Virus record (IMG/VR): IMGVR_UViG_3300037508_001008
Location: 3,139-67,138 of that record
Length of the DNA: 64,000 nt
Origin: a virus
Direction: 5' to 3' (one strand)
Part shown: positions 1-64,000 of the stretch, in pieces
Position numbering within the stretch: the stretch's first letter is position 1
Layout of the letters: every line of letters starts with the position of its first letter
Position numbers and translations under genes: made by a program
The notes under the pieces: generated by a model
Seen by the model: only the letters and a program-made list of their open reading frames with translations
Databases searched by the model: none
What the model was told of the DNA's origin: nothing

Positions 1-1266
1 TCTTTGATCTGCCGGAAGACCCATATTGTCGATTGTTGCCTTAAGGTCTTGCATTCTAGACTTTAGTTCTTTTTTGTGAGAAGTTAGAAATCTTGAATTA
101 AGTAATGAGCTTCCGTCAACTGCGCTTTTTGCGCTTGATGCTCCGTCATTAAATTGTTTTAATATATTTTCTTTAGCAGTAGTACTTACGCTTGAACCTT
201 CAATGTATCTTTTTACATGATCTGCTAAATTTTTAATATTTTTTCCACCAACACCTTTTCCAGGACTATAGCTATTAATTGCTTCAGCTAAAAGAGTGCT
301 TTGATCATTACTTAATCTGCCAATATATGTACCTATATAGTCTTCAACTTTTAAGCCCTTATAAGCGGCCATAGTCCTCAGTGTCTCCTCTGAGACTCTA
401 GAACTTCTTCTGAGTACACTAAATCCAAATTTATATTCTCCACCATTTACTTTTTCGTGCGCAAATTTTTTCATTATCTCATACTGAAATTCGCTAATGA
501 AAGAACTTTGTTTTAAAGTTTTTCCGCTTAGAATGGATGAAAGATCTGCTCCAGCTATTGCTACTTCTCTTTCTGATGTTAATGTTCTTATTCTTTTAGA
601 TAGTTTTAATAATTTATCACCAAGAACATTTGAATCTTCATCTTTAAATATTTTATTAAATACATCTGGATCTGCTAAGTTATGCCCAGAGACAGAGAGT
701 AGTAAGTGGGACTGTAAAGCTGTTAGAGATTTTCCTCCCATTCTAAAATTAAGAACTCTTGCCCCCTGGTCGTCCATTACAGATATTCCATGTATTTCGC
801 CCCTTTCCCTAAGGGTCTTAAGTCTCTTAACTATGCTTTTAGCATCACCTTTGCCACCTGACATTATTTGAATGTCCATTTTTAAATCACGTAGGTTTGG
901 TATATCAATTCCTGCAGCCTCTAATGCCTTTATCTGATTGGCTGTATAATTTTTATTAGTTATATCTTTTAGAACCGCTCCTAAACCAGAAACTTTATTA
1001 CCTATCATAGGGTCTGTTACAGATAAATTTTGAGTAACAAATAAAGTTGATGCCCTACCTATAGCTGGAGCCATAGAGTCAAACTCTTCTCCGGTTCCTG
1101 ATATGACATATTTAATATTATCACCATCTGGAACGACTTCAATAACTTTACCTAATCCATATACAGTTTTTCTTAACGCAGCTCTTGCTGCCATAACTTT
1201 TTCTGCTGTTGTCTTATATACACCAAAATCAAAATTTGATTTATGATAACTAATTGGATTGGGCAT
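1..1266 (-). CDS. Large hypothetical virion-associated protein, truncated by the window edge
   Basis: ATG at 1266 overlaps the upstream stop (TAATG); reads MPNPISYHKSNFDFGVYK... and appears to stay open to the edge; absent from the ORF track. Confidence 0.75.
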   Translation of the reverse strand, partial: MPNPISYHKSNFDFGVYKTTAEKVMAARAALRKTVYGLGKVIEVVPDGDNIKYVISGTGEEFDSMAPAIGRASTLFVTQNLSVTDPMIGNKVSGLGAVLKDITNKNYTANQIKALEAAGIDIPNLRDLKMDIQIMSGGKGDAKSIVKRLKTLRERGEIHGISVMDDQGARVLNFRMGGKSLTALQSHLLLSVSGHNLADPDVFNKIFKDEDSNVLGDKLLKLSKRIRTLTSEREVAIAGADLSSILSGKTLKQSSFISEFQYEIMKKFAHEKVNGGEYKFGFSVLRRSSRVSEETLRTMAAYKGLKVEDYIGTYIGRLSNDQSTLLAEAINSYSPGKGVGGKNIKNLADHVKRYIEGSSVSTTAKENILKQFNDGASSAKSAVDGSSLLNSRFLTSHKKELKSRMQDLKATIDNMGLPADQR

Positions 1267-4200: not shown

Positions 4201-7200
4201 AGTGGTGTTGTTATTGGAGAAAATTTTGTTTGGATTCCACTAGAATTTACTTCAGATATTCTTCCACTAGAAAAAGGTTCTAATAGCCTTTTTGTCTCTG
4301 TACTTGATCTCACTGTAGTTAGCATTTGTTTTGCTGCCGCGAGCATATTTTGTTGCCCTGTTAGGCCATGCTTAAATGTTGTGAAGGCGCTTATGTTAAA
4401 CATCGTTCCAAGTGCTGCTGCCTGTGCTTCAGTTCTTTGTGATGGAGATATTTTTCCTATTTTTACCAAATCATCAATTGCTTTTTGTATTTGAATGAAT
4501 ACTTCGCCTTGATTTGAAGCTCCTAATTTGACTTGATTAACTTGAGAAATGTATCTAAATATTTCATTTCTTAATTGATCTAATCTAGTTGTAATAGTTG
4601 GAGACTTTTGAGACATTTGAGAAATGGCATTTAAGTTTCCATTATTAAGTAAATACTGTAATCTAGATCCAGAGGTTGTTAAAAATTGTGGATCTACACC
4701 TAATCCTTTAAGTTCAAGGCCCAACAATTTTTGCCCACGAAGAAGTCCTTGGGCAAACTCTGCCATTTCTTGGCCGCTAGACATACTGCTAACCCTTTTG
4801 CCTCCCATTGTAAATAACTCTGGGTGGAGCTCCTCTAACTGCCTCATTACTACTGGATTTGTACCATATTGAAAAGACTGTTTTCTTAATGATTCGTAAG
4901 CTTTTAATATATCAGATTGACTAAATTCATCAATAGCTTTTCCAGAGCTATCTACGACTCTCATTGTACTTGAGTTTAATTTAATCCTTGTAGATGCCCC
5001 ACCAATAGTGTAATCTATTTCTTCTCCAGCAACTAGTTTTGCGATCACTGATTTATTTTGAATATCAGTTTTTCTTCCGCTAAATCTTTTAGCTAATCCA
5101 AATAGAGAGTTTGGCTGATCTGGAGCCATACTCATGGCTCTCTTAAATTTTAGAGCGCGCTGTTCCCCACCTAATATTTTATTTAGAAATCTTGAACCAG
5201 ATGTTCTATTGATTTCATCAGTAGTCTCCCCTGACATACCTGATGCTAGGCGTGTTTGCCTAGTTAGTAAATCACTACTTGCAGTAGGAATAGGTCTATA
5301 TGTGCCAGGTAAAGATTCTCCATAAACTTTGTCTGCTAATGAGTCAGTTTCAAAACCCATAACCTTTCCTCTAGAGCCCTTTGTTTTATACCATAAATAA
5401 AAATCTTTCTCGGAAGTACCTTTATTTAAAAATGGCTGCGCGCTTCTAGAAGAAACATATTGTATTGGAGATCTTTTTGCCATTTCTGCAAAAGATCTAT
5501 ATCCAAATAAATCAAATGGATTAAAACCTAATACGGGTATTTTGAATTGCCCCATAAAAAAGTCTGCTGTATCTTTAAATGTAGTTTTAATAGCACTAAA
5601 GTCAAGAATTTCTCCTGCTTTAGTTTTATATACTCCATCAAGTTTACTAAAGCCTATTGATTTTGATACAGGGTCATTAACTGCCATTCTTACAGCAAGG
5701 TCGTTTATAGTTTTTCTTTCTGACTCGCCTAAATAATTAAATCTTCCTGCATTTCTTGCTTCGTCAATTGTTAATGGCTGTAGTCCAAATAAATTAAAAC
5801 CACCATTAAAAATACCTGACGTCATTTGTTTATTTTTAATTAAAAAAGCTCTTAAATCTGTAAATTTAGTTGGATCAAACCCCTGCTTTCTTAGGGCGTT
5901 GTTAACTATATTATTTGAGACTTCTCTTCCAGAATCGTCTAATAATTTAATACCCAAAACTTCTGCTGTTTTTCTTTGTAAAAATTCTTGCTTCGATAAA
6001 GTTAATGGGCCAACAAAATCTTGATATTGAGCTTTTTTAGGTTTTAATAAAGATCCACCTATTGTTGATAGGTGATCAGAGTAAAATGTGTTCCAATTTT
6101 TTTTGATATTTAAATTAAGATTTTTTTGGAATTCTCTTGAGGCAAATATATCTCGTGCATCTTTGACTGCATTATTTAATACTTGACTTGAAGATTGTGG
6201 TGTATTGTTTAGCGAGCCAGATTTTTCCAAAGCTTCTGATAGAGTTTTACCACCTTTAATTCCTCTATATCTTTTTAGAATTTTAGAAAAAAAATCATCC
6301 TCAATATCTATTGCGGTATCGCCGTCTTGAATTATTTTATTTTTACCAATTGTAATAATATTACTTGCGTTCATATTACTTCTTGGTGCACGTACGTTTA
6401 GATAATCAACAAATTGACCAGCCTGCTTTTTATCAATTCCTCTTGCAATTAACTGCTGCGTTAAGACACCTTTAAATGCGTCCTGTTGCCTACCTCTATA
6501 GAAGTCACTTGAAGTAAAGGCTTTATCGCCAGGTCCACCTCCACCAAGAACCGTTAAGCCAGTAGCTAATGATGACAGCCTACTAGAGTGCTGTGACTGT
6601 ATCTTTCTTATGGCTCCCTCTAAGGTGTTTGCCTGAAAGCTTCTATCAACAGAAGTCATTTGAGAAAGAACTTTATTAAATGCTATAGAATTTTCCATAG
6701 CATCATATGCTTTCCCTAGTAGCTTAAACTCTTTAGCACCAGCTTCGTAAGCTGCTCTAACTCCACGAAATGATGGAACTATATCTAATATTGAATTATA
6801 GTTTTCTGTTGTCTTTAATCCATTTGGGCCAGTAGAGGTTCCTTTAAATCCTTTAATAAGGGTTTCAAATTTAACCTTTTTTATTTCATCTCTACTTGCC
6901 TGGCGAGCAACTGCTTGCTGCTCTGCGGCGGTAATGCCTTGACGAAGATTATGCAGATTCTGCACAAAACCTCTTTGCCCCTCTGTCTTATATACGTCAA
7001 CTGCAGAACTAAATCCGCCAGAAGTTTGAGCAGACACTTTTAGAAATTTATTAGTTAGTGTTGCAAAGTCATGGCCAACTTCAGATAATACTTCACTTAA
7101 GTCTACGAATGCATTATGAAACTTAGCCTGTCTTGGTGTTAGGTTGGCCATATCATTAAGTGAATACCTTAATGTTTGTAGCGATGATCTGCCAGCAGAC

Positions 7201-7937
7201 GTTGCAGCTCCAGCAAATTCAAATGGAAGAATCATTGTTGCAATATTACTTAAAGATTGCTTAGTAAAATCAGCCATTACATCTGCTGGATTATACCACT
7301 TGACTTTTCTTTCGCCTTCTTCTCTTCTGCCAAAAATAGGATCTGTTAGCCCTCTTTGGGCGCCATACAGAGCTGGCAATTCATACGGCATTCTCCTTCC
7401 AGCTCTAACTAGTCTGACCTGAAGTTCTTCTCTCCAAGACCAGACTCCAGCTGGCTCTCTAGTTAAACCAAATCCAGCTTGTCTTTTTTCTTGATCATTT
7501 AAAAATCTATATCCAAATCTTTCACTTTTCATTCCCTGATAGCCGGTAGTATATTTGCCATCCTGTTGAAAAATTAATTTAGAATAAGGATCGTCCCCAT
7601 CTATCTGACGAGCTACTCCTTGAAGTTCATCTAATTCTCTTCTGATTTCTGTAACAGACTTAATTAATCTAGTCGCAATTGGAGAAGTTTCAGATCTTTT
7701 TTGAAGATGCTTAGCGAGTTTTATTCCACCAGATTTAGTTAATTTTGAAGCGACAAATGTCCCACCAATTGTTGCAGCAGTCGTTGCAAAAAATCTAATT
7801 ATTGGATGACTATTTAAAGCTTTACTAATAACTCCTGAATTATGAGAAATACCTTCTTTGTCTCCCTCATTAATTGGGAGATCACGAGAAGTTACGCTGT
7901 AACCTAAATTATGTATTGGTCCTGGATCGCGTATCAA
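1266..7937 (-). CDS. Tape measure-like large virion protein (2223 aa)
   Basis: Very long Gly/Ala/Ser-rich helical protein directly after tube genes and two chaperone-like genes; RBS AGGAG before a TTG start. Confidence 0.6.
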   Translation of the reverse strand: MIRDPGPIHNLGYSVTSRDLPINEGDKEGISHNSGVISKALNSHPIIRFFATTAATIGGTFVASKLTKSGGIKLAKHLQKRSETSPIATRLIKSVTEIRRELDELQGVARQIDGDDPYSKLIFQQDGKYTTGYQGMKSERFGYRFLNDQEKRQAGFGLTREPAGVWSWREELQVRLVRAGRRMPYELPALYGAQRGLTDPIFGRREEGERKVKWYNPADVMADFTKQSLSNIATMILPFEFAGAATSAGRSSLQTLRYSLNDMANLTPRQAKFHNAFVDLSEVLSEVGHDFATLTNKFLKVSAQTSGGFSSAVDVYKTEGQRGFVQNLHNLRQGITAAEQQAVARQASRDEIKKVKFETLIKGFKGTSTGPNGLKTTENYNSILDIVPSFRGVRAAYEAGAKEFKLLGKAYDAMENSIAFNKVLSQMTSVDRSFQANTLEGAIRKIQSQHSSRLSSLATGLTVLGGGGPGDKAFTSSDFYRGRQQDAFKGVLTQQLIARGIDKKQAGQFVDYLNVRAPRSNMNASNIITIGKNKIIQDGDTAIDIEDDFFSKILKRYRGIKGGKTLSEALEKSGSLNNTPQSSSQVLNNAVKDARDIFASREFQKNLNLNIKKNWNTFYSDHLSTIGGSLLKPKKAQYQDFVGPLTLSKQEFLQRKTAEVLGIKLLDDSGREVSNNIVNNALRKQGFDPTKFTDLRAFLIKNKQMTSGIFNGGFNLFGLQPLTIDEARNAGRFNYLGESERKTINDLAVRMAVNDPVSKSIGFSKLDGVYKTKAGEILDFSAIKTTFKDTADFFMGQFKIPVLGFNPFDLFGYRSFAEMAKRSPIQYVSSRSAQPFLNKGTSEKDFYLWYKTKGSRGKVMGFETDSLADKVYGESLPGTYRPIPTASSDLLTRQTRLASGMSGETTDEINRTSGSRFLNKILGGEQRALKFKRAMSMAPDQPNSLFGLAKRFSGRKTDIQNKSVIAKLVAGEEIDYTIGGASTRIKLNSSTMRVVDSSGKAIDEFSQSDILKAYESLRKQSFQYGTNPVVMRQLEELHPELFTMGGKRVSSMSSGQEMAEFAQGLLRGQKLLGLELKGLGVDPQFLTTSGSRLQYLLNNGNLNAISQMSQKSPTITTRLDQLRNEIFRYISQVNQVKLGASNQGEVFIQIQKAIDDLVKIGKISPSQRTEAQAAALGTMFNISAFTTFKHGLTGQQNMLAAAKQMLTTVRSSTETKRLLEPFSSGRISEVNSSGIQTKFSPITTPLKRKFGIAQHQTDDLTVDPLGTGQSVTLVPTFGTVFGNDPMGAIKSAIGLTTYSDPQSFSTGSMPMSHSVERLNRYFGTLGMQLDTSDFGGPLSLYTKGMIGKRVLPIYAAGTTALTVDRTLGGMTSEEDARGEKVYRPLVLGQVAKAAVEGQALMSGIMPGGMNYQDKREQLVEGEVPIRQGRFWPLGNTPFKGGKIMYHRPSWYQKLQGGAGFTSDLYGSPMEKFLFYNDISPLRPLDPYRFERKHYEDRPYPVTGEYFSGPFGPLTPFLNMTVGKILKPQKMMHEQEVAAGLASYAPAGQSGAYDTLAYAPQTLSRVTSGVSGSMGFGGAVQSPRGQSGYAAPIANYNTQMASMAGAMNTAGMATANTIGNINQSYLNAAYGPPKVSGVMQPRVVGAGSPLKPSHLNYQLTEFGYKMQEMAGIYGFAFGTFREKFGFGQSDFEPQRSVLQSAQKAYGTTRAFWDLNLGGLGDVPIPSREAIGNIEFSEIVRRFIPKERTGVDYINPIQNLMGQQYPFLPGPEYYTDFTRGDPFSKIQEGEIRLPGVGYERFNKLYPDQTGEYGLINQLDILGDVAPYSKQFKNVNTMIDKQPLTAEERIRVAEIRNQVEQTTKKYEFSDYKYSDISTPENIKMATTQPFKFSMTRLGESIVHSDNFLIAKTIGKRSAVEDWERRNVYGTTFPEWSRPYESYIKPMLNKSTQENPISAAATLGFVGSMFGATPGAKLFGTTAGIVAGGGSSIFGNAYELITGDRFIPQERKKELALEEYTDILSYVKNTRLANMSKQSGDMASANQFRMAAKRTMYGADLYGSDVETLSLAVPKRKREHFKAMISAPVSEREKILSTSGRLERRLYEAAWGMKVEKRPELEDYFARHELPDASWEGWHPNTNIDAVKIKMGQSMGLEMSQMGYYPQQIKEANLVNPSYPNFNYNNDRQDVVYKLRSLMSGMGLSGSVNVSSNPFGSNNFNVSAGVR

Positions 7938-13492: not shown

Positions 13493-13545
13493 GTTGACTT
13501 TTAACCTCCGGCTAAATGGAAAATCTTAGAATTAAATCTTCATTT

Positions 13546-13553
13546 ATAGTAAC
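13546..13553 (-). promoter_or_regulatory. Putative late promoter element TACTAT (also 21070, 24734, 27536, 45772)
   Basis: Same hexamer 30-70 bp upstream of the sheath, 20265-21038, protease, portal and Clp ATPase genes. Confidence 0.4.
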
Positions 13554-13608
13554 AAAAAAGTTATAAAAACAACTAGATAGACTTGTTGATTAAAATAATA
13601 TATATAAG

Positions 13609-14418: not shown

Positions 14419-16013
14419 TATGCACCGGGTCCTGCAGCTATTCTAAAATCGATTTTTTTAAGTCCAAGCGCAGATAGTAGTTCTATGTATACAAACATTT
14501 TTCCAGGATCATTAACTGCTACTTGTCTATTAAGTGAAAAATCCAAAATTATATTATCAGATTTCATTGAACGTAATAATTTATTAAGTTTATCCATAAA
14601 TACATCATGACCAAACTTACCTATACTTTCATACGCGTAGTCTTTAGCCATATTAACCACATAGCCTACTAATCTCATTTGTGCAGCTTTTTGGAGTGTG
14701 CTATTTGACTTTGCCATTGTATAATCATTTGTTAGATATACCTCAAACGGTATTGATCTTTTAGTTTTTTTGCCACGATATATTGTATTGATCCCAATAT
14801 TTTCTAATCTTCTAAAATCCTGTTGAGATAAATCTGAACCATATAAAGACATTAATCCTGGCACCCTAGCTCTTATTAGAGATCTGTTTAATGGATTACT
14901 AGCCAATAGTCCAGCGTAGGCTGCTGCCATATTTGATATATAGGAACTATTTATTTGTGAGTGTTGAAAGACACCTTCACCATATACTGGAATGACAAAC
15001 CGTCCATTGTCTGATAGGACAGTATTGTCTATATTGTACTCTGTAAGCTTATCTGTAATTATTTCATCTGCTTCTAAAAAGTCAATATCCACTGAATTGA
15101 CGCCACCGGATCTAGAACCAATTATACCCATCTGGACATATCCTGTTGTATTATGAAAGTCCGCGCAGTAATCTGCTAATTGTGTAATAAAATCAACACC
15201 ATTAGTTTTTAGTATTGAAGTTTCTAAGGGAACAATTATATCTACAAAATCAAGATCTTTAATTATTGAATATGTTTCCTCTAATCTTTCATAATATTTT
15301 TCATAAAAAGTATATGAAGAAGGTGTCGCATTTTGTAGATCAAATATTGTAGTTGGAATATTTTTTTCATAAAATTTTTCGACATACTCTAACATAGGGG
15401 CTGCCGCACAAATCATTATATCTCTAGCTCCTGCTGCGTATGCGTCAAAAACGCCTCTTAGTAGAGGAGACTTTAAGTCTGCGCCTAAAAGATCTACCGC
15501 TTGTTGAACTGTTTTTATTTCAACTGGTACATTTAATTCTATATTATTTGCATGCCCGATTAATAAAATAGTTGACGTATTTCCTGCTGACAGTTGTGCA
15601 TATCGTGGTTGATAATTTATAACAGTACTTTTTTCAGAGTTAACTATAACTGGAGATAAAGTAATTGGATCACCTTTTACTTCAAAATTAGATGTAACTA
15701 CAAGTTGTGAAGCTGAGTCTGAAGTTCTGGCTAATACAGTATATGTACCATTAAATAATGTACTGGGAATTCTATAATTAAATGTAAATTCGTATGTGTT
15801 TGATTTTTCAATGTATGCGTCAGTATTTGGTGTAGAGTTTTGACTCCAGTATGAATATGGGCCATCTATTACTGGTCCAGAACCATCTGCCCCTCTAAGG
15901 ATTGTTGTATACAAATCTGATGGACTTGCAACTGAGGTTGGATCGTACGGTAAACCTCTAGAGGTAAATATAAATTTAAATTTAACTAATTGACCTCTTT
16001 GTAATACTAGCAT
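14418..16013 (-). CDS. Second sheath-like protein with N-terminal Ig-like domain
   Basis: LIGHA..EIKTVQQAVDLLG..SPL.RGVFDAYAAGA and C-terminal GINTI..QMRLV..LGLKKIDF resemble sheath; start probably MLVLQ at 16013. Confidence 0.55.
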   Translation of the reverse strand: MLVLQRGQLVKFKFIFTSRGLPYDPTSVASPSDLYTTILRGADGSGPVIDGPYSYWSQNSTPNTDAYIEKSNTYEFTFNYRIPSTLFNGTYTVLARTSDSASQLVVTSNFEVKGDPITLSPVIVNSEKSTVINYQPRYAQLSAGNTSTILLIGHANNIELNVPVEIKTVQQAVDLLGADLKSPLLRGVFDAYAAGARDIMICAAAPMLEYVEKFYEKNIPTTIFDLQNATPSSYTFYEKYYERLEETYSIIKDLDFVDIIVPLETSILKTNGVDFITQLADYCADFHNTTGYVQMGIIGSRSGGVNSVDIDFLEADEIITDKLTEYNIDNTVLSDNGRFVIPVYGEGVFQHSQINSSYISNMAAAYAGLLASNPLNRSLIRARVPGLMSLYGSDLSQQDFRRLENIGINTIYRGKKTKRSIPFEVYLTNDYTMAKSNSTLQKAAQMRLVGYVVNMAKDYAYESIGKFGHDVFMDKLNKLLRSMKSDNIILDFSLNRQVAVNDPGKMFVYIELLSALGLKKIDFRIAAGPGA

Positions 16014-34779: not shown

Positions 34780-36633
34780 TTAAAACATCCTGCGATTAAT
34801 ACTATTAGTACTAGATTTTTTGGCAGATCTTCTACTACTCATAGCAGCTACTCTACCAGATAGATATGATTTTGAAGATTCTTCATCTTCTTTACTATTT
34901 TTTGGTATAAAGAAATCATTAGAAAATGTTTCTACTTTTGTAACAGAGCTTATCTTGGCAAACTCTCCATAATTTTGAGTTATTGCTAATAAAGCTAGCA
35001 TTAGTGCGTCGTGTGCGTGATCGACAGCTGAACCACCAGCCTCAAATACTGGTCTTCCAGTAGAGGTCATTCTTATAACTACATATGATATTAATTGTAG
35101 ATACATTTCTTCATCATGTTCAGAAAAAAGTACTTGTTCTCTTTCAAGAAATTGTCTAAGATTGTCAACCATATATGGTTTTATTTCTTTTTTAATCATT
35201 AACTTTGTATAAGGATCTCTTACCTCTATGCTTTCACCAAAGCCAATTCCTTTTACTCTTTCTTTAAGTTTTGAAGAAGGATTTTCTACTCCATGCTTAC
35301 GTAAAAGTTCTACTTGAACTTCTCCATAACCTCTGTCAACATAAATATGCTTAGGATTAAATATTTGATTTAATTCAATAATTCTATCTACTGCTTTAGT
35401 CAAAGTGTATTCAGATTTATCTATTTCCTCACGATAACAAAGTCTTACTTTATCTCTAAATCTTTCATCTTCATAATTATCTGAACAAACTTCAAGAACA
35501 ACTATATTTGTTCCCGCTCCATATTTATCCCAGTCAACACCTATTGTATGAAAAGATCTTGCTGAAGTTAATTCTGGAGAGTATGTCCAAGATGGAGATA
35601 TAAAAGCTTTATCAATAAATTTTCTTGGATATACGCCTTCAGAATCTTCTCCCCAATCTGCCTCAATTTCATGTCTATAGCCAGAACTTGAATACTGCTC
35701 CCTAAATTCTTCTTCTTGCTCTTTACTAAAGAATGGATTACAGTATGATGGAAACCAAAACTCTTTAAATCTTTTACTATTGCACCATTCCCAAAATCTT
35801 TCTCTTCTGCCTGTTGGCGTAGACGCTCCAATCAAAACCTTATCCGGTTGATCTTCAGCGGTTTTTTGCAACATTGCATAAAGGGCATCTAGGTCATCTG
35901 CGTGCATGTAGTCCATTTCGTCAAGAATAATTAAATGAGCTTCTTGACCACGAGCTACGTCTGACTTGCCACCACTTCGCATTCCTGAAGTGAAGAATCT
36001 AATAGTTGATCCATTAGTAAATTGAATCATAAACTGTGGACTGGTAATTTTTCTAGTTATAGAATTCATAACGACTTCATTTTTAGAAGCTATTCTTAGT
36101 ATCTCTTGATAAATTAATTCTACTTGGGTTTTCATTGGCGCAATAACTAATGATCTACCATCTTTTCTAGTGTAACTATAATGCAGCAGCTGAACTGCTA
36201 GACTAAATGTTTTACCTAGACGACGACCAGCTCTTAGAACTTTTCTTAATGATGGATCACGTAAAATTAATATTTGATATACTCTTAAATCAGCTTGTAA
36301 AAATTGTTTAGCCCAAACAACTACATCTTTGGCAATATGAAGCTGTCTTTGTTGTTCTGCGCCAATTCCAGCAGCAAGAAGGTCTTGATCTATTTCAAAT
36401 GGTTCATCAACTAAAAGTGCTAATTCTTTATTAGACATTTTCCTTTCTATAACTGGTGTTCCATCGTTCCAGTTAAGATGAGAAAGTTTATTTTCAAAAA
36501 CCCATTCAATTCTATTTATTTGTTTAATTAGATCTGGATCTTGGGCGCGAATTATCTCTAAAAGATCTTCTCTCGGAAGGACTTCCAGTGCTTTTCTAAA
36601 TTCTTGAGTTCTACTATAAATTCCCATAATCAC
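34780..36633 (-). CDS. Terminase large subunit
   Basis: Walker A AGRRLGKT, Walker B LIILDE, motif III ASTP, nuclease GVDWD..VDRG..DHAHDA. Confidence 0.92.
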   Translation of the reverse strand: MIMGIYSRTQEFRKALEVLPREDLLEIIRAQDPDLIKQINRIEWVFENKLSHLNWNDGTPVIERKMSNKELALLVDEPFEIDQDLLAAGIGAEQQRQLHIAKDVVVWAKQFLQADLRVYQILILRDPSLRKVLRAGRRLGKTFSLAVQLLHYSYTRKDGRSLVIAPMKTQVELIYQEILRIASKNEVVMNSITRKITSPQFMIQFTNGSTIRFFTSGMRSGGKSDVARGQEAHLIILDEMDYMHADDLDALYAMLQKTAEDQPDKVLIGASTPTGRRERFWEWCNSKRFKEFWFPSYCNPFFSKEQEEEFREQYSSSGYRHEIEADWGEDSEGVYPRKFIDKAFISPSWTYSPELTSARSFHTIGVDWDKYGAGTNIVVLEVCSDNYEDERFRDKVRLCYREEIDKSEYTLTKAVDRIIELNQIFNPKHIYVDRGYGEVQVELLRKHGVENPSSKLKERVKGIGFGESIEVRDPYTKLMIKKEIKPYMVDNLRQFLEREQVLFSEHDEEMYLQLISYVVIRMTSTGRPVFEAGGSAVDHAHDALMLALLAITQNYGEFAKISSVTKVETFSNDFFIPKNSKEDEESSKSYLSGRVAAMSSRRSAKKSSTNSINRRMF

Positions 36634-55270: not shown

Positions 55271-57781
55271 ATGCCCAATAACAAGGAGCCTGAACAGGGC
55301 ACCGAGGCCGCCGGACCTACTCCGGCAACCCGCGAGAGGGATGTCCGACAGGGCTTCTTTCACGGGATCGTAAAGCGCACAGGTCGCTGGCTTCGGCTGG
55401 TGTCAGGTGCACCTCTCCTCTCAGGAGATGAGGTATTTGAAGAGTTTGAGGGAGGGCCTTATGCCCCCGCATTCCTCATGCACTTCTTTGCTGATCGATT
55501 CCGCGTTGAAGTCCGAAAGGTCAACGAGAAGGCGCTTAAGGGCGTCAAGCCGGTGATCAAGTCGGATGGACCCGTGGTACTTCCCACGCCAATCTCTAGC
55601 GAAGTGATTCGCTTCAGTACGGCGTCAGAGCAGTACGTTGTCCGAGTTAAGGGCAATGACGGCTGGCTTGCCTCTTTCAAGGAGATCGGTCTTTTGATCG
55701 GTAATTCGAAGAAGATGAGCAAGCGTCTCGTGGAGCTTGTGCGCTTGTCGTGCATGTGGCTCTATCGAGATGCCAAAAATGCTCTGAAAGTGGAAGTCAT
55801 CGACCATAAGGCGTTGGGCATGCCCGACAGCTACGTGGACGGTGCTACCGCAATCTCCAAGGGATTGGCTATCAAGTGCGTGAAGTCGAATACTTCGTCT
55901 TCGCGTGCTTGGCGAGCTCGTCACATCTGGGCGATCCGCAGTGGTAAAACCGCTGTTGTTCAGATCCGGATGATGTGCGAACTGGGCTTGATTAAGGGTA
56001 ATGCCGTAATCGTGTCCAAGTCAATGATGAACGGTTTCGACATTCGTACGTTTGAGCCAAACATTAAGACTGAGGTTCGCACCTCTGGGTGGCAGTGGTT
56101 GACGATTGAACCGACATATGGGGCTATCCCTGTAAAGTCGGACGATCAAACCCATGCCATCTATCGGCGTGTGGAAGGTCTTTATGACTCAACCACGTTA
56201 CTCGATACTCTTCAGAAGAGCCTGGAGCAATTCTTCCAGGACCTAAAAGAGGGTAAGAGGTCTGAGTGGATGGAAAAGTTGGCAGATAATGCCGACGAAC
56301 TCCTTCACGAAGATGAGGAGGACAAGTTCGGTCAAAACCGAGGAATGGTCCAGCTGATTCAGGAAACGGTTGCTAAGCTTAATAGGCTTGGTGTACCTCT
56401 ACTGAGCTGTCAGACCCTCTTGTTCATGTCCGTGAGAGGACTCACACTGTCATTGCTTGGCGATAGACGGGATGAGTTTAATCACGAAGTGAAGGGTGAA
56501 GTATGGCGTGATAAGAATCGGCACTGGTTTCCCGTGCCGTGGGCGTATGCCGCTCACGTTTATACAAAGGAGGTACTGGAAATCTTTGGGTACAAGATGC
56601 CCAAAGGTAACCATGCCTTCTACCACGAGCAGACTCACAGCTTCGTGGTACCTGGTAAATTCTTTGAGGTTAACTTAAAGAATCATGGTGGTCCAGACTT
56701 AGATGATACGGTGAAGGTTCATATTCGCCGTGTCCGTCATAAGAATGGGCGAATCCAGACAATGGCAATCATAATGCGCAACCCGAACGATTTCGGGGAG
56801 TGGTCAATGATTTCCGTTGGCAAGGACATGGGACCTGTATTCCATGCCTACGACCAGGAACCGCCAATGGTAGATTTGGAACAGCTAACCAAGTTCGTTC
56901 CACAATTTACGAAGCTGGAGAAGAGACTGAATATTGGTACTTTACCGGCCATGAAGAATCCACCCAAATTGGGACCGGAGTTTTCGTTGTCCGATGAAGC
57001 CAGAATCAGACTCGCTGCAATGGGTTTTCCGCCAGGCGTTGGAGGGACTGTAATCCCGAAGATGATCTGGAACGCACTCCTTGATCAGCCGATCATGAAT
57101 CTTGTAGACTTGAACGAGAACATCATTGACGTTCTCCAACAAGGTCAGGGCTCTACGGCTGACACAAATGCCATCAAGCAATGGGTGGCAGATGTGTTTC
57201 TCGATCTTGGTCAGCAATTGAGTTTCAAACTGGATCCATTCTGGTTCCATACTCGAATGCCAAAGCCAATTATTGAGGAACAGGGATGGCAAGCCGATGA
57301 GGCAGAAAATTCCTCGTGGATGACCCTTCACCTGGAGAGGGAGTCAATGGCTCGTAAATACATTAAGGAAATGACGGATTGGCTTAATTGTCAGATCGTT
57401 ATGCCTGAAGTATTGTCGAACATTGACTTTACGAACCAGGAATACACCAATGGTAACATTAAGTTGGCCAAGGTGCGTTCCGATTATCGACGTATCATTA
57501 AGATGCAATCTAGTGAAGCGTGGGTAAATTGGTTCTCCGGAAAGTTGGCTGAGTCTGATGAAGACGATGAGCGTGGTGAAGAGTATACGGATCGTATGAT
57601 CTTACTACTCGCTCAACGCGCAATTGTCCAGAAGAAGGCGAGCCATCGATCCAATTACGACCAGTGGCTGTATTCGTTCTCTACGAAGAGCGAACGGCAC
57701 CCGGTAGATTGGTATATCCGGGCTCTCCGACGGGTACAGGATGGAACCTACGATTGGTTTCGTTCCAACAGTCAGCCCTAA
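55271..57781 (+). CDS. Putative single-chain two-barrel RNA polymerase, YonO/RNAi-RdRP-like (unit 16)
   Basis: D190GATAISKGLA, Q231IR..LIK242G, GGPD476LDD, IMR503NP, GVGGTV, ENIIDVLQQG. Confidence 0.65.
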   Translation: MPNNKEPEQGTEAAGPTPATRERDVRQGFFHGIVKRTGRWLRLVSGAPLLSGDEVFEEFEGGPYAPAFLMHFFADRFRVEVRKVNEKALKGVKPVIKSDGPVVLPTPISSEVIRFSTASEQYVVRVKGNDGWLASFKEIGLLIGNSKKMSKRLVELVRLSCMWLYRDAKNALKVEVIDHKALGMPDSYVDGATAISKGLAIKCVKSNTSSSRAWRARHIWAIRSGKTAVVQIRMMCELGLIKGNAVIVSKSMMNGFDIRTFEPNIKTEVRTSGWQWLTIEPTYGAIPVKSDDQTHAIYRRVEGLYDSTTLLDTLQKSLEQFFQDLKEGKRSEWMEKLADNADELLHEDEEDKFGQNRGMVQLIQETVAKLNRLGVPLLSCQTLLFMSVRGLTLSLLGDRRDEFNHEVKGEVWRDKNRHWFPVPWAYAAHVYTKEVLEIFGYKMPKGNHAFYHEQTHSFVVPGKFFEVNLKNHGGPDLDDTVKVHIRRVRHKNGRIQTMAIIMRNPNDFGEWSMISVGKDMGPVFHAYDQEPPMVDLEQLTKFVPQFTKLEKRLNIGTLPAMKNPPKLGPEFSLSDEARIRLAAMGFPPGVGGTVIPKMIWNALLDQPIMNLVDLNENIIDVLQQGQGSTADTNAIKQWVADVFLDLGQQLSFKLDPFWFHTRMPKPIIEEQGWQADEAENSSWMTLHLERESMARKYIKEMTDWLNCQIVMPEVLSNIDFTNQEYTNGNIKLAKVRSDYRRIIKMQSSEAWVNWFSGKLAESDEDDERGEEYTDRMILLLAQRAIVQKKASHRSNYDQWLYSFSTKSERHPVDWYIRALRRVQDGTYDWFRSNSQP

Positions 57782-58723: not shown

Positions 58724-58832
58724 CTTATAGTATATTAGTCTTTTTTTATTTATAGCTGGCTAGGCGCATTCTAAACCCCTTCGGGGGGTGTGAATACACC
58801 TCTAGCGAAAAGAATGTAGTGAAAGTCACTCA

Positions 58833-58922
58833 TTCTAAAAAGAAGGGATTAACTTCCTTCTAAAAAGAAGGGATTCTCTTCATTCTAAAAAGAAGGGACT
58901 AACTTCCTTCTAAAAAGAAGGG
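58833..58922 (+). repeat. Four TTCTAAAAAGAAGGG direct repeats with a 25-bp period
   Basis: Copies start at 58833, 58858, 58883, 58908; single AAAAAGAAGGG copies near 59608, 59968, 60557, 61058, 63920. Confidence 0.92.
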
Positions 58923-58980
58923 AGAGTTTCCCAACGAGATACCTGCTCGTACACAGGTTTGCCATCAAGGAGGAAACGAA

Positions 58981-59481
58981 ATGGCACAAAATACCAAGTC
59001 CAACAAGACCATCAGCGTGTGGGTCAACGCGGGAGAAAGCAAGATCGTGTTGAACCGCAAGGATGGTGCAGAATGGAGTCGTCCACTCTTCTTCAATGCT
59101 CCTAACGGAGTCCGCGAGAAGATCGCCATCTGGCTCGGAAAGGTGTTGACCGACGAGAACGGCAAGCCCGTACTCAAGCTCAACAAGATCACGGGTCAGA
59201 TGGAGAAGCAGGTCGACTTCACGAAGAAGGCCACGAACAACTGCGAGTGGGAGATGGACCTGAAGATGGTTAAGACAGAAGCCATCAAGTCGGGCGCAAA
59301 CGCTGGCAAGTTGGCGGACTCGATCACCATCACGGATGAGAACTTGTCCGAATGGTTGAAGCAGTTGGTGTTCACCAAGCGCGGTAGCATCCGTGCAAAC
59401 GTGGCAACCACGCTCAGCGAGTTCGAGCCGACCATCATCGGTGACGACGACGAGGACGGTGACGACTTCGAGGATTTCTGA
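58981..59481 (+). CDS. Possible ssDNA-binding protein, paralog of 53998-54453
   Basis: AAGGAGG RBS; strongly biased codons; tail DDDEDGDDFEDF. Confidence 0.55.
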   Translation: MAQNTKSNKTISVWVNAGESKIVLNRKDGAEWSRPLFFNAPNGVREKIAIWLGKVLTDENGKPVLKLNKITGQMEKQVDFTKKATNNCEWEMDLKMVKTEAIKSGANAGKLADSITITDENLSEWLKQLVFTKRGSIRANVATTLSEFEPTIIGDDDEDGDDFEDF

Positions 59482-59672
59482 TCCTCAGAGTCAGCGGTCA
59501 AGGAACGAAGGTTGGGTACTACGAGAAATCGTGGTACCCAGCCTAAGTTTCTTATAAAAAGATTCTTTTTTATTTATAGAGCTCTCTTTAATCTTTGAGC
59601 ACATACAAAAAAGAAGGGGGATTATCATCTCTCTTTATTTTTTACTTATAGATACCAGAAAGGAAATAAGTC

Positions 59673-59969
59673 ATGGTGATGTTAATTAATGGTATGCTTT
59701 TGGGCATTTGTTTTACTTTTGCCGGCGCATATCTATATCAAACAGCTCGTTATCGCTTAACTCATGGTAAAAAGATCCTTGTTGCAAAGCAAGAGGTTGG
59801 ATATGTCATTAGTTGTAGATATAATGGTTCAAAGCATTGGTTTTTTATTGATGAGTATGGTCAAAAGTCACAAGATCATTTCGATAAAAAGCAACATGCA
59901 GTAAGAACATGCAAAAAAGACTTCTTATCACGGCGACACAAGCAAACCACTATTGCACGTATCGCCTAA
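59673..59969 (+). CDS. Hypothetical protein with an N-terminal TM segment
   Basis: GAAAGGA RBS. Confidence 0.65.
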   Translation: MVMLINGMLLGICFTFAGAYLYQTARYRLTHGKKILVAKQEVGYVISCRYNGSKHWFFIDEYGQKSQDHFDKKQHAVRTCKKDFLSRRHKQTTIARIA

Positions 59970-59985
59970 AAAGAAGGGTGTGTGA

Positions 59986-60054
59986 ACTCCACTAGGGGAG
60001 TATAAACCGTTTTAAGCCTAGTGCGTTCCCCAGATAACACTGGGGAGATAACTG
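59986..60054 (+). ncRNA. Pistol-class self-cleaving ribozyme
   Basis: P1 ACTCC/GGAGT; pseudoknot ACTAGG/CCTAGT; TAAA, TTAAG and GCG conserved segments; P3 TTCCCCAG/CTGGGGAG; R-U cleavage dinucleotide; P2 GTT/AAC. Confidence 0.8.
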
Positions 60055-60511
60055 AGTTTCCGCGTACATACCAGTGTACGTCCGGCCCGATTATAAATCG
60101 GAATAAGGATATAAGATCTGGATAATCTTATATGGAATATTATATTATGATTGCAGATCCCGTCATAATATAAGAACTCCGATGCAGGAGGAACCTGCTG
60201 CGGTAACCATATTGGTACCGTAATACAGGGAAACAGGTGTAGTCAGTTCTAGTTCAGGACTACATCGGCATAGATATAACTAGAGGGCTCTTGTATACGG
60301 ATGTCCAAAGAACATATTGTTCGGCCTGATCAGCCAGTATATACTGAAAATAATCTCAAGCAGTTATACTTGAGTACCGGGAGCACCCAGTCCCCGAAGG
60401 ATGTCGGAGATAGTAAACACTATCAACTGGGCTATTCTAAAGTTCTCCCCCCCGGGTTGAGCACCTTGCGTTTTTACCCTCCTTTTCGCAAGAGTGCTCC
60501 CCGGGAGAGAT
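60049..60511 (+). ncRNA. Large structured non-coding RNA of unknown class
   Basis: More than ten consecutive helices plus pseudoknot and loop-loop complementarities; no credible ORF. Confidence 0.65.
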
Positions 60512-60594
60512 CATAGTCTTCTAAAAAATTCTTTTTTCTTTATAATTGTCCCTTCTAAAAAGAAGGGGTGTAATACCAACAGAAAGGAACCCTT

Positions 60595-60789
60595 ATGCAG
60601 TTAATTAAAAATTTAATAAAGATCTACGCAGCGATTCTTGTATGCTGTGCTATCGCCGGCGCAATTACCGGTGGTGCAAAAGCAGTTAAAGAGTTGCGCG
60701 CAGAAAACAACAAACCATTGTTCAATCATTCTCCAGAATTTCTGAAAATATTGAACCACTATGAAAAGAAAGAAAAGGTAGCATCATGA
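60595..60789 (+). CDS. Small membrane protein
   Basis: GAAAGGA RBS; N-terminal TM segment. Confidence 0.65.
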   Translation: MQLIKNLIKIYAAILVCCAIAGAITGGAKAVKELRAENNKPLFNHSPEFLKILNHYEKKEKVAS

Positions 60790-60935
60790 GTATTTCAAGC
60801 AAAATGGGTAAAATTGCAGGTAAGGTCGTGACCGGATCCAAGGCAGCACCCAAAGCAACAAAACGGAAACTCAGTACGTTGAAGAACGAACTGGCTGAAG
60901 GTTATCGTTCTGCAGCTACAAACGACTCAGAGTAA
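60786..60935 (+). CDS. Small basic protein (49 aa)
   Basis: ATGA overlap with the upstream gene; MSISSKMGKIAGKVV...; followed by hairpin 60949-60986. Confidence 0.55.
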   Translation: MSISSKMGKIAGKVVTGSKAAPKATKRKLSTLKNELAEGYRSAATNDSE

Positions 60936-61128
60936 TCCAATCAAGTCATTAGTGAAGTGGTTATCGCAAGGTAGCCACTTCACTAACCCTGATAGCAAAT
61001 GTCTATTTTTATTCTAAAAAATTTTTTAAGAAAAGATCTAGACCTTTGTCTACTTCCAAAAAGAAGGGTGATATCAATCATCCTTATTACACAACAGTAA
61101 ACTACACACAGAAAGTACACTTATCATT

Positions 61129-62232
61129 ATGAATACAAATATTAACTTTGCTGAACTAGGAATTGGAGATTTCTCCGATCTTGGTGAAATCATTTCTAAT
61201 CCTGAAATCTTTGAAGGTGGATCTCTTTCCACTACTCCAATTAAGATTGGAAAGACCACCAAGTATCCCGTCAGCATTAACGGACGACCATTTCCAGGTC
61301 TCCTTACCGTAAGCAATGCAAAGTTGACTCGTTTGTCTCTTATTGAGCAAACACGTGCAGATGGTCACACCTACATGATTGTAACTGGCATTATGAAAGA
61401 CGTCAATTTCAATCTTGATCTTGTGGTCAATGGACAAAACATCAACATAGTAGACTTCATGTTTGAACTTGCTAAGCAGGCAGCTGGATACAAGGATGCT
61501 GATCGTACAAGTTTTATCAAAACTTTGACAGAAGACCTTAAGATGCCTTTGTTGGATGACATGCAAATCTTCTTCCAACAGATGGGCGCCTCAGCAGCTG
61601 CATACGAAGAATTTATTCTTAAGCTAAACGAACGTGGTCTTGTTATGGCAGATGACACTAAGCGTGTCAATCCTGAACAAAGAAACCGTATTCAGCGTGC
61701 ATATGTGCTCCGAGACATTCCTGTAACTGAATTTGAGATTGGTACTACCGATCCCAATCAGTCTGATATGTTCCGTAGTACAAATGGACAAGCTGAAGCA
61801 GGCTTCATTGATCTAGCAGATGCCATTTGGCGTAACTTTACTCGTATCATGAAGCTGCGTAAACTTCGTAGTATCAAGCTTTCTGAGATTGAAAATTTGT
61901 CTGCACAAAATCCGGCAAATCTACAGGAAATGGCCAAGCAGTTAAAGACCGAAGCAACTCATATTCAGAAGCAGGCAAATTCTTTTGCAGGCAATCTGGG
62001 TGGTGCACGTCTTCGTTGGACTCGTAGTGAATCCACTGGCGAATGGACTGTAGATCAAAAGGCTGTGTATGATCCCACCTATGTTCCTTGCGGTAAGTTG
62101 ACCGTTCTTGGAACTGATGGTGAAGAGATCAAGGCAAACTTCTGGACTAATCGCTCAGAATCATCAAACGAAAACAAGCCAGTATTCTCTAACTTGGCTC
62201 AATCGTTGACTGACGAAGATTTCAAGCTCTGA
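61129..62232 (+). CDS. Hypothetical protein (367 aa) with an acidic C-terminal tail
   Basis: Long ORF ending LTDEDFKL; no family recognised. Confidence 0.8.
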   Translation: MNTNINFAELGIGDFSDLGEIISNPEIFEGGSLSTTPIKIGKTTKYPVSINGRPFPGLLTVSNAKLTRLSLIEQTRADGHTYMIVTGIMKDVNFNLDLVVNGQNINIVDFMFELAKQAAGYKDADRTSFIKTLTEDLKMPLLDDMQIFFQQMGASAAAYEEFILKLNERGLVMADDTKRVNPEQRNRIQRAYVLRDIPVTEFEIGTTDPNQSDMFRSTNGQAEAGFIDLADAIWRNFTRIMKLRKLRSIKLSEIENLSAQNPANLQEMAKQLKTEATHIQKQANSFAGNLGGARLRWTRSESTGEWTVDQKAVYDPTYVPCGKLTVLGTDGEEIKANFWTNRSESSNENKPVFSNLAQSLTDEDFKL

Positions 62233-62281
62233 CCCCCAGTTAGATGAGTTTGTCCGTTCTCACCAAAAACGGACACCCCTT

Positions 62282-62412
62282 GGGGCTAATGGTTACAAGT
62301 ATCTGGTTTAACGCATAATGCAATGGTCTAATCTTTAGATTACATTGTATATTATGGACATCATGTCTTCGTGCAACGCCATTTCAGGAAGGTTCGATTC
62401 CTTCAAGCTCCG
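62282..62412 (+). ncRNA. tRNA(Ala)/tmRNA-like mini RNA
   Basis: Acceptor GGGGCT/AGCTCC with G3-U70; T arm GAAGG-TTCGATT-CCTTC; no D or anticodon arm. Confidence 0.6.
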
Positions 62413-62419
62413 CCGAGTA

Positions 62420-62523
62420 CTGCAGGTAACACAATAAATCAGGGACACCTATGAACGTGGAACCGTGGATTGATGTTACACACTGTCATGTGTAATGTCT
62501 ACTGTGACAGCAGTAGCCTGCGG
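62420..62523 (+). ncRNA. Structured RNA with complementary hairpin loops
   Basis: Closing stem CTGCAGG/CCTGCGG; loops CTGTCA and TGACAG. Confidence 0.5.
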
Positions 62524-62578
62524 GAAAGCTTATTGCTTTTATTTTTAGTACATACAAAACAGAAAGGAAACTACAACA

Positions 62579-62743
62579 ATGGAATTTCACCTTTGTGAAA
62601 ATGAAAACTGTCGTCATCAATGCGAACAAGAAAGCTGCGATAGCATGATCCTATATCATGATGAACCGTATTGCTTCACACACTCGCCAGATGAAGGCTC
62701 ATCTTTCAGGAACTACGACTCTCGTACAGGAGGTTGGAAGTAA
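62579..62743 (+). CDS. Small Cys/His-rich protein (54 aa)
   Basis: GAAAGGA RBS; MEFHLCENENCRHQC...YCFTH. Confidence 0.6.
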   Translation: MEFHLCENENCRHQCEQESCDSMILYHDEPYCFTHSPDEGSSFRNYDSRTGGWK

Positions 62744-63030
62744 TGACAACTGAAATCAGAATGGCCACTATCAATACTCCCAGGTGTTGGCAGTGTGGTA
62801 AAACAGGCGAACTACAGATCTCTTCGGACATCTACTTCGCCGGCATCAAAAAGTTAGATGAAGGTGCTCTTATTCAAAACGCCTTTCCTTCACTCAATAG
62901 TGAACAGCGCGAACAAATCATGACTGGCATTCATCCCGAATGCTGGAAGAAAATGTTCCCGCCAGAACAAATTGAACTGAATGAAAATGGCGTACCAGTT
63001 AACTGGGATAATCACCCTAATAACATCTAA
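62743..63030 (+). CDS. Zinc-binding phage protein
   Basis: CWQCG...IQNAFP.L..EQRE..MTGIHPECW; TAATG coupling with AGGAGG RBS. Confidence 0.75.
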   Translation: MTTEIRMATINTPRCWQCGKTGELQISSDIYFAGIKKLDEGALIQNAFPSLNSEQREQIMTGIHPECWKKMFPPEQIELNENGVPVNWDNHPNNI

Positions 63031-63033
63031 TAA

Positions 63034-63080
63034 AATACCTAGTAGTCATATAACCTATGGCTACTAGGTATTCTTTATTT
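63034..63080 (+). terminator. Intrinsic terminator
   Basis: AATACCTAGTAG/CTACTAGGTATT stem followed by a T-rich tail. Confidence 0.7.
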
Positions 63081-63237
63081 AAGATAGTCTTCTGGGGGGG
63101 ACCCGCGAAGCGGGGGGGTCCCAGAACTGATTAGGTCTGCGATTCTCGCAGCAGTATGATATACTAACGTATAGTTAGTATGATTCTATTAAGACTTTTT
63201 ATTTAAAATAGTCTTTTAGCTGCGAGGCGCAAATACA

Positions 63238-63408
63238 ATGTATGTGATCGTCCAGAGAGACTCAGACAATGTTCATGTCTATGGCCCATATCACTCACAA
63301 TATGGAGCCAATTATGACATTCGTCATCTCGAGGAAATCAGTCCAGACTACTGTTACAAAGTACACAGACTCAATCTCCCAAAAAACTCTCCAAAATTCC
63401 GCAACTAA
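63238..63408 (+). CDS. Small hypothetical protein (56 aa)
   Basis: GAGG RBS; MYVIVQRDSDNVHVYGPY... Confidence 0.5.
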   Translation: MYVIVQRDSDNVHVYGPYHSQYGANYDIRHLEEISPDYCYKVHRLNLPKNSPKFRN

Positions 63409-63473
63409 CAAATACTTATGATATAATATATCCATAGGAAGGAACACCTATCAACACTGACATACAAAGGAGT

Positions 63474-63698
63474 ATGAACAAGATGCCTAAGCAGCATCAA
63501 TCCAAAGCAGTAAAGAAAGTATTCTCTGAACTAGAGAGACTAGGATTTACCGTAATACATAAGAAGTCCGGGTCCTACAGTATCTACCCTCCCTCCACGA
63601 TACAAGGACCTATGTATACAACTCATGGAACGGAATCCGCACTCCATCCAATGAGAAGAGACTTCAAACGTTTATACGACATACAAATATCAGTGTAG
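63474..63698 (+). CDS. HicA-like protein
   Basis: ELERLGFTV..K.SG...IYPP...YTTH.T...RRDFKR alpha-beta-beta-beta-alpha pattern; AAGGAG RBS. Confidence 0.55.
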   Translation: MNKMPKQHQSKAVKKVFSELERLGFTVIHKKSGSYSIYPPSTIQGPMYTTHGTESALHPMRRDFKRLYDIQISV

Positions 63699-64000
63699 GA
63701 ATTCCTACCTCGCTCAGGATAAGTGGTGGACCTAGGTGGTGGGTCCACTACTTTCCTGGGTATCATAGTAGAAAAATTGTTGTTAAAAATAGTTATCCCT
63801 ACCTTTTTTAAGCGGGGGCCCATATCAAGGAAGTTTCCCATATCAAGGGAAACAGTTAATACTTTTATTAACTTATCCGATATAGGCCCCCTTTTTGGTT
63901 TATTTTTGGAGTACATCTCAAAAAGAAGGGGAGTCCTCATCCCTGAGGGGAATACCTTTCCTTCTATTACTCTCTCTATAATATATATAATAAATGTTCA

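Follow-up and report, generated by a model that had tools for sequence, protein, structure and literature searches.

The locus described here raises the question of what a phage makes from some 460 nt that lie among small genes and that a preliminary description took for a densely structured non-coding RNA of no recognised class (60049-60511). All coordinates refer to the window, i.e., the whole stretch of 64,000 nt that was analysed, which derives from a 67-kb IMG/VR virus record with an estimated completeness of 32%. All 14 DNA runs containing the whole stretch are lake-water metagenomes, and the relatives found via a nearby 836-aa protein (13 loci at 45-59% identity) are phages of ca. 200 kb; the carrier of the RNA locus is a lake-water jumbo phage. 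Its phage group is very poorly annotated. Among 10 large minus-strand ORFs scanned at 23-43 kb, the terminase at 34780-36633 is the exception to a general lack of Pfam matches (9/10), and the 2223-aa ORF at 1266-7937, also on the minus strand, has no PHROG match.

Between 58.8 and 64 kb, the plus strand carries small genes that each have a AAAAAGAAGGG motif upstream and a hairpin with a T-rich stretch downstream, and the RNA unit is bounded by promoter motif and hairpin like these neighbouring gene cassettes. Nine exact plus-strand copies of AAAAAGAAGGG are found from 58837 to 63930; when up to one mismatch is allowed, there are 12 matches compared to 2.9 expected, a number reached by none of 100 shuffles. 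The motif also precedes genes in the closest relative with the locus (L002) and in a metagenome contig with a second copy of the RNA (L016, see below), and we take it for a putative phage promoter. The copy that concerns us here overlaps the TAA stop codon (59967-59969) of the upstream 98-aa gene and ends 7 nt 5' of a ribozyme, and the next one after the RNA is found at 60557. Two further sequence elements were noted in these cassettes. Upstream of the gene at 58981-59481, whose 166-aa product ends in an acidic tail (...DDDEDGDDFEDF) that recalls those of SSB proteins, TTCTAAAAAGAAGGG is repeated four times in tandem at an exact spacing of 25 bp (58837-58922); L002 has three copies of TTCTAAAAAGAAGGG ahead of its counterpart of this gene, and a small CCTTCT/AGAAGG hairpin is possible in some copies. 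A T-rich element ending in ATAG or ATAA (TTCTTTTTTATTTATAG-like; 58741-58757, 59566-59582 and 60527-60542) sits between the cassette hairpin and the next promoter motif, also in L002 and L016, and may be part of a terminator or promoter.

The ribozyme directly upstream of the structured RNA belongs to the Pistol class, the sole family found in an Rfam scan of the whole window. The match extends over the full model (positions 1-68 of 68) and scores 45.4 bits, where the gathering score is 34.5; its E-value in the scan of all 64,000 nt is 4.5e-05. Its predicted cut, assigned by the rule in PMC4604425, lies between A60048 and U60049 and coincides with the start coordinate that the preliminary description had given for the RNA. 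The absence of a recognised class claimed there holds for 60049-60511 itself but not for the sequence directly upstream, where the full Pistol at 59986-60053 had been overlooked. As a class member, this element has P1 (4/4 pairs in the Rfam alignment), P3 (8/8) and P2 with three of four pairs, the fourth position being a C-U mismatch; its pseudoknot, CUAGG/CCUAG, differs from the consensus CUGGG/CCCAG by two changes that retain pairing. The part of PMC4604425 drawn on here places the cleavage site in a junction of strictly 2 nt, usually GU but variable in identity. The two nucleotides are kept in the window (A60048-U60049), and the L016 Pistol has GU. The residues named as catalytic in the section of PMC6154101 that we used (purine 32, G33-C41, G40 and G42) are all kept, with the env25 numbering mapped by hand onto the Rfam alignment. 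Besides the A instead of G before the cut and the P2 mismatch, the only deviation listed is a U instead of the consensus A at position 39 in the P3-side loop.

Going by the excerpts of Harris et al. 2015 (PMC4604425) and of a review (PMC6154101) consulted here, Pistol ribozymes are typically phage-associated, as in the present case, and have no established biological role. Unlike the typical member, the ribozyme in the window has an AU junction and one mismatch in P2. It follows a promoter-like motif at a distance of 7 nt and is joined to a large conserved RNA, a placement that suggests a role in making 5' ends. Since promoter, ribozyme and large RNA lie within a few bases of each other, the cut would define the 5' end of the RNA, and most likely the Pistol indeed cuts the RNA free in this way. 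A second, stronger Pistol (72.4 bits) is located at 13514-13578 of relative L005, 2 nt after an ORF stop codon and with no promoter motif; the 151 nt behind it are not unusually structured (z 0.36), and the contig ends 147 nt after it. This relative (L005/G003) is the one with a Pistol among the nine other relatives' records searched, a set that leaves out the L002 record.

Downstream of the predicted cut, all 13 helices listed in the preliminary description were found by sequence look-up with full Watson-Crick or G-U pairing, and the complementarity it had noted between loop TCTAGTT (60248-54) and AACTAGA (60278-84) is likewise present. Table 1 gives the resulting arrangement of domains. The minimum free energy of 60040-60520 corresponds to a z of -5.51 (0/100 shuffles as good) and that of 60049-60345, which excludes the terminal hairpin, to a z of -3.37 (0/200 shuffles as good). 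Because the minus strand does just as well (z -5.65), folding energy cannot assign the strand; we infer the plus strand from the Pistol and the promoter motifs, which all lie on it, and from several G-U pairs in H1, H6 and H8 that the opposite strand would turn into A-C. The loop of H10 carries the palindrome UGAUCA, and the hairpin at 60451-60505 was missed by a simple terminator scan because its loop is too long. As long-range closing helices we considered GUUUCC/GGAAAC, GAGU/ACUC and a pairing of the 5' end with GGGCUAUUC, between which two sequences do not decide.

Table 1. Features of the RNA locus and its immediate surroundings (window coordinates).
Feature	Position	Strand	Basis or remark
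Small gene upstream (98 aa), hydrophobic segment at the N terminus	59673..59969	+	ORF list; homologous to L002 ORF 15238-15564 (BLASTP E 1e-16)
Promoter-like motif CTAAAAAGAAGGG	59966..59978	+	One of 9 exact AAAAAGAAGGG copies
Pistol self-cleaving ribozyme, RF02679	59986..60053	+	Rfam covariance model
Structured RNA, predicted 5'-OH end to just past terminal hairpin	60049..60516	+	Folding, comparison, RNA contigs
5' domain, four hairpins; possible closing helix GAGU/ACUC	60054..60179	+	
GAGTTT/GAACTC	60054-59/60174-79	+	Read from sequence
H1, loop UACCAG	60062-60081	+	CGTACA/TGTACG within 60062-60068/60075-60081
H2, CCGATT/AATCGG	60087-92/60096-101	+	
H3, ATATAAGAT/ATCTTATAT, loop CUGGAUA	60109-17/60125-33	+	
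H4, TTATATTATGA/TCATAATATAA, loop UUGCAGAUCCCG	60140-50/60163-73	+	
Core four-way junction (Pa, H5, H6, H7), conserved joiner GUAAUAMAGGGAAACAGGU	60179..60268	+	Window-L016 alignment
Pa, CCGAT(G)/(C)ATCGG	60179-83/60264-68	+	
H5, GCAGG/CCTGC	60184-88/60194-98	+	
H6, CGGTA/TACCG	within 60199-205/60216-222	+	
H7, GTAGTC/GACTAC	60239-44/60258-63	+	
Candidate pseudoknot UCUAGUU (60248-54)/AACUAGA (60278-84)	60248..60284	+	
63-nt block identical in window and L016; H8 60285-60306, H9 60310-22, H10 60323-35	60278..60340	+	Alignment columns 103-165 invariant
71-aa ORF, judged spurious	60301..60516	+	21 aa in L016; no Pfam/PHROG match
Variable hairpin CTCAAG/CTTGAG, 60355-60/60369-74	60355..60374	+	Inside 33-nt segment absent from L016
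Three-way junction: P12, H13 60394-60407 (window only), H14	60386..60431	+	
P12, CCCAGT/ACTGGG	60386-91/60426-31	+	
H14, GATAGT/ACTATC	60409-14/60419-24	+	
Long terminal hairpin, terminator-like, then T-rich stretch	60451..60505	+	Includes GAGCAC/GTGCTC 60459-64/60494-99

A further copy of the RNA was found by a metagenome scan on the single contig L016, which starts inside a Pistol (5'-cut match, 21.6 bits) and on which the RNA closes with a hairpin, after which comes the promoter motif of a gene other than the one that is next in the window. It folds with a z of -6.36 and shares 83% column identity with the window RNA, rising to 95% in the core (60176-60340) and to complete identity over the 63 nt of 60278-60340. 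Across 17 helices and 91 pairs, 70 pairs are the same, 5 have changed on one side, 16 have changed on both sides and still pair, and none is broken, a count that leans towards structure in that the pairing registers for the replaced hairpins (H2, H3, H14 and T3) were chosen by hand. Double-sided changes in L016 affect two pairs of H1, one of H2, four of H3 and five of the six pairs of H14, and H4 has one one-sided change; the terminal hairpin at 60451-60505 shows compensatory differences in both L016 and L002. Compensatory changes, which the preliminary description had named as the point to look for in homologues, are thus seen on the basis of two DNA sequences (window and L016) and the RNA contig fragments described below. 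L016 does without the hairpins at 60355-74 and 60394-407 and the CCGA/TCGG hairpin, forms only four pairs of GAGTTT/GAACTC and has lost the inner two pairs of H7 (GTAGTC/GACTAC), as has one RNA variant. The fixed elements include UACCAG in H1, GAUCC in H4, GGGAAAC and the 63-nt block with its UGAUCA loop. The loop of H3 reads CUGGUA in L016 and one RNA variant, of which UACCAG in the H1 loop is the exact complement, and CUGGAUA in the window. Stems that vary with compensation around fixed loops and joiners are the pattern of an RNA with a tertiary fold.

The preliminary description had also tied its reading to transcription of the locus. Six metatranscriptome runs from five studies contain 0.22-0.26 of the sampled words of 59650-60600, and four of these runs, from four studies, were mapped as assembled contigs onto this interval of 951 nt. 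RNA contigs were found in all four (4/4), amounting to 11 pieces that all fall within 59988-60407, with long ones at 60063-60399 (depth 56.7), 60090-60380 and 60196-60407; the RNA is present in lake and river RNA libraries. No piece covers 59650-59987 or 60408-60600, gaps that say nothing on ends or level, and the lack of pieces on the flanking gene or the next promoter makes stray DNA an unlikely source. The contigs carry no strand, end or cleavage information, none spans 60049, and spliced joints were found in none of the 11 pieces. In a riverine metatranscriptome contig (X16, record 3), a match to the 5' half of the Pistol (59988-60026) is preceded by 135 nt that do not resemble the window; transcripts of a related Pistol hence exist with another upstream context.

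The RNA contigs also carry variants of the fold. G60187A and C60195T occur together in one contig and are compensatory in H5, and three further changes keep their pairs (G60174A and G60299A from G-U to A-U; A60168G from A-U to G-U). A60193G, C60226T and A60276G fall into loops or joiners, and G60181A, in one RNA variant, disrupts a single pair of Pa. One contig has lost the inner pairs of H7 through changes at 60243 and 60244, and two more of its changes, at 60256 and 60258, fit a hairpin formed by 60246-50 and 60256-60. This alternative hairpin competes with the candidate pseudoknot, both strands of which are invariant in the window and L016, so that their comparison neither supports nor refutes it. 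At loose contig ends, other versions of H3 and H4 are found whose arms are different yet complementary. Several contigs break at 60196 and 60225, and the 30-mer between these positions (60196-60225) is common to the variants.

Other searches for copies of the RNA came back with little. Neither blastn in distant mode with 59600-60600 against 50,697 phage records nor exact and degenerate patterns from conserved stretches in viral_contigs and genome_contigs found a homologue, and a covariance model of the core run on 15 sources gave convincing matches only in the window and L016; a minus-strand match to the core in L010 (15 bits, E 0.043) was judged to be due to chance. The same model matched none of 10 relatives' whole records, an empty result that is weak evidence, and there is no second copy of the core in the window. 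Protein-anchored searches with neighbouring genes yielded no relative or only L002.

L002 carries a homologue of the 98-aa gene, no Pistol in its locus of 22 kb and neither the 5' part nor the core of the RNA. Its positions 15511-15768 are homologous to 60301-60558 of the window (nhmmer E 2.4e-07), and the last ~215 nt of the RNA (60301-60516) match the tail, 3' UTR and terminator hairpin of its gene: the L002 ORF runs on into the sequence homologous to 60301 onward and is followed by a structured 3' UTR and hairpin (z -5.75). Because L002 carries the 3' part alone, the 460-nt RNA may be a composite, with a module of the Pistol and ~250-330 nt that is present in the window and L016, absent from L002 and either inserted after the gene or deleted in L002. 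In BLASTP, the 98-aa ORF of the window aligns to the very end of the L002 ORF with a 7-aa gap, so that the window gene looks complete. Conservation of the ORF at 60301-60516 as a protein would have spoken against the preliminary description, and its length was found to be 71 aa in the window compared to 21 aa in L016. The non-coding nature of the RNA is supported.

The relation to L002 bears on two readings that involve a protein-coding gene. The stretch of ~59937-60300 might be an intron-like or mobile insertion near the end of the 98-aa gene, which it would interrupt; it would be either spliced out or have been inserted together with a duplicated gene tail. This possibility is suggested by the L002 ORF, which continues without a break beyond its homology to the window ORF and into sequence matching 60301 onward, and by the distribution of the module. 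Yet models of group I and group II introns gave no Rfam match at E ≤ 10, the RNA contigs are without joints and three of them run unbroken across 60297-60301, the window ORF already reaches the end of its L002 counterpart, and neither the window nor the records of the 10 relatives hold a second copy of the core; a plain deletion in L002 would account for the pattern just as well, and we consider an insertion of this kind very improbable. We give equally little credence to a reading as the structured leader of a small peptide (MSKEHIVRPDQPV...) starting at 60301, even though the window and L016 agree fully in its ATG and first 13 codons, and in L002 the homologous stretch is translated as a piece of the ORF. 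The two ORFs differ in length, the ATG lies inside helix H8 and lacks a Shine-Dalgarno sequence like those of neighbouring genes, the identity extends to all codon positions as fits a constraint at the RNA level, and there is no Pfam or PHROG match.

The main rival is a different one and concerns the message of the 98-aa gene, for which Pistol and fold could be mere punctuation, that is, a module that forms and stabilises the 3' end of the mRNA. The message would obtain a structured 3' end with a cyclic phosphate, and the RNA downstream would be a functionless by-product. This would agree with the absence of any terminator in the sequence between the ORF stop at 59969 and the Pistol, with the promoterless Pistol of L005 that directly follows an ORF stop codon, with the homologous 3' part of L002 being a plain gene tail and 3' UTR and with the RNA contig in which the 5' half of a Pistol stands behind 135 nt of another transcript. 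What makes us regard it as unlikely is that a by-product needs no conserved multi-junction structure of ~400 nt with compensatory changes and an invariant block of 63 nt, that a full promoter motif lies just ahead of the Pistol and that the RNA contigs are found on the downstream RNA and not on the ORF, although uncovered parts prove little.

The preliminary description had suggested a link to a nearby polymerase, and nothing was found that ties the RNA to one. The 836-aa protein encoded at 55271-57781 is conserved in the 13 related jumbo-phage loci with an invariant GGxDxDD at residues 473-479 and has no Pfam, PHROG or PDB sequence match. Its AlphaFold model is poor (mean pLDDT 58), a Foldseek search with this model gave 0 matches at E ≤ 0.001, and an Atlas search with the protein gave scores under 0.8. 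Among the top non-significant Foldseek rows, chains of the Neurospora RNA polymerase QDE-1 recur (best probability 0.41), and the protein may be an RNA polymerase of the two-barrel type that recognises the AAAAAGAAGGG motif; given non-significant fold matches and no sequence match, we rejected it as an established polymerase. Also rejected was an antisense target for 60051-60062 at 60864-60875 (12 nt, inside a 49-aa ORF at 60786-60935), the best exact complement within the window, since chance alone would give about 1.7 matches of this kind and L016 has another 5' end of the RNA.

The packaging RNA of phage phi29 has two complementary hairpin loops that link its copies hand in hand. By analogy, the complementary loops UACCAG and CUGGUA could link copies of the RNA described here, which belongs to an unrelated phage group and matches the phi29 RNA in neither sequence nor structure. 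The likeness to GOLLD and ROOL drawn in the preliminary description does not extend to membership: no Rfam family other than Pistol was found at E ≤ 10 in 59400-61200, none at gathering score in the window, and neither GOLLD nor ROOL at E ≤ 1 in L016. The ~460-nt RNA is a new family outside all Rfam families. What it shares with GOLLD and ROOL, as portrayed in the portions of Weinberg et al. 2017 (PMC5737381) used here, is to be a large, multi-junction, phage-borne non-coding RNA of unknown function, and the same portions place the first sighting of GOLLD in lake metagenomes. Self-assembly through loops is reported for both in the cryo-EM work excerpted here (PMC12286853), and the RNA in the window has conserved loops that may pair with one another. 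It is unlike both in its smaller size of ~460 nt, in the ribozyme at its head and in the absence of tRNA genes from the 64-kb window. A precedent for a self-cleaving ribozyme fused to a phage non-coding RNA, with presumed end-trimming, are the HDV-like theta ribozymes by phage tRNAs, at least in the account of them that we took from PMC10879173; these are of another ribozyme class with another cargo and sit on the 3' side of tRNAs, compared to the 5' end here. No description of a large phage RNA headed by a Pistol was found in the literature searched, in which supplementary motif lists (e.g., of PMC5737381) could contain a related motif outside Rfam.

On balance, we think it rather probable that the locus is a separate phage gene for a Pistol-processed, stable and highly folded non-coding RNA that acts in trans. 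Transcription would start from the motif at 59966-59978 and probably also reach the RNA by read-through from the upstream small gene. The Pistol would then cut and thereby discard a short leader or detach the upstream message, leaving a product of ~460 nt whose 5'-hydroxyl end is the same no matter where transcription began. This product would fold into a 5' domain of four hairpins, the core with its four-way junction, the invariant 63-nt block, a three-way junction and the terminal hairpin, and it may act in trans during early infection as a folded scaffold, either bound by protein or self-assembled via its conserved complementary loops. What the data show are the match to Pistol, the folding statistics, a fold conserved in a second phage, the loss of the ORF there and the occurrence in RNA libraries; that the motif works as a promoter, that cleavage takes place, where the RNA ends on its 3' side and the scaffold step are inferred. 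A scaffold that binds protein or itself is favoured by the complementary loops of H1 and H3 and the palindromic loop of H10, and we would put this role well below an even chance.

With no match in Rfam, a complex fold kept in a second phage and contigs in RNA libraries from several freshwater studies, the RNA joins the short list of large phage RNAs alongside GOLLD and ROOL, and its length is suited to transcription in vitro, chemical probing and cryo-EM. We think it quite doubtful, and only a bold guess, that it is the first example of a new class of ornate phage RNAs, either as a Pistol-trimmed homo-oligomer held together by the loops of H1/H3, H10 (UGAUCA) and H4 or as a new ribozyme. Should the homo-oligomer reading be true, Pistol ribozymes in general would be makers of 5' ends for such RNAs. 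The Pistol class has been known since 2015 without an assigned biological job, and this locus offers a concrete and testable one.
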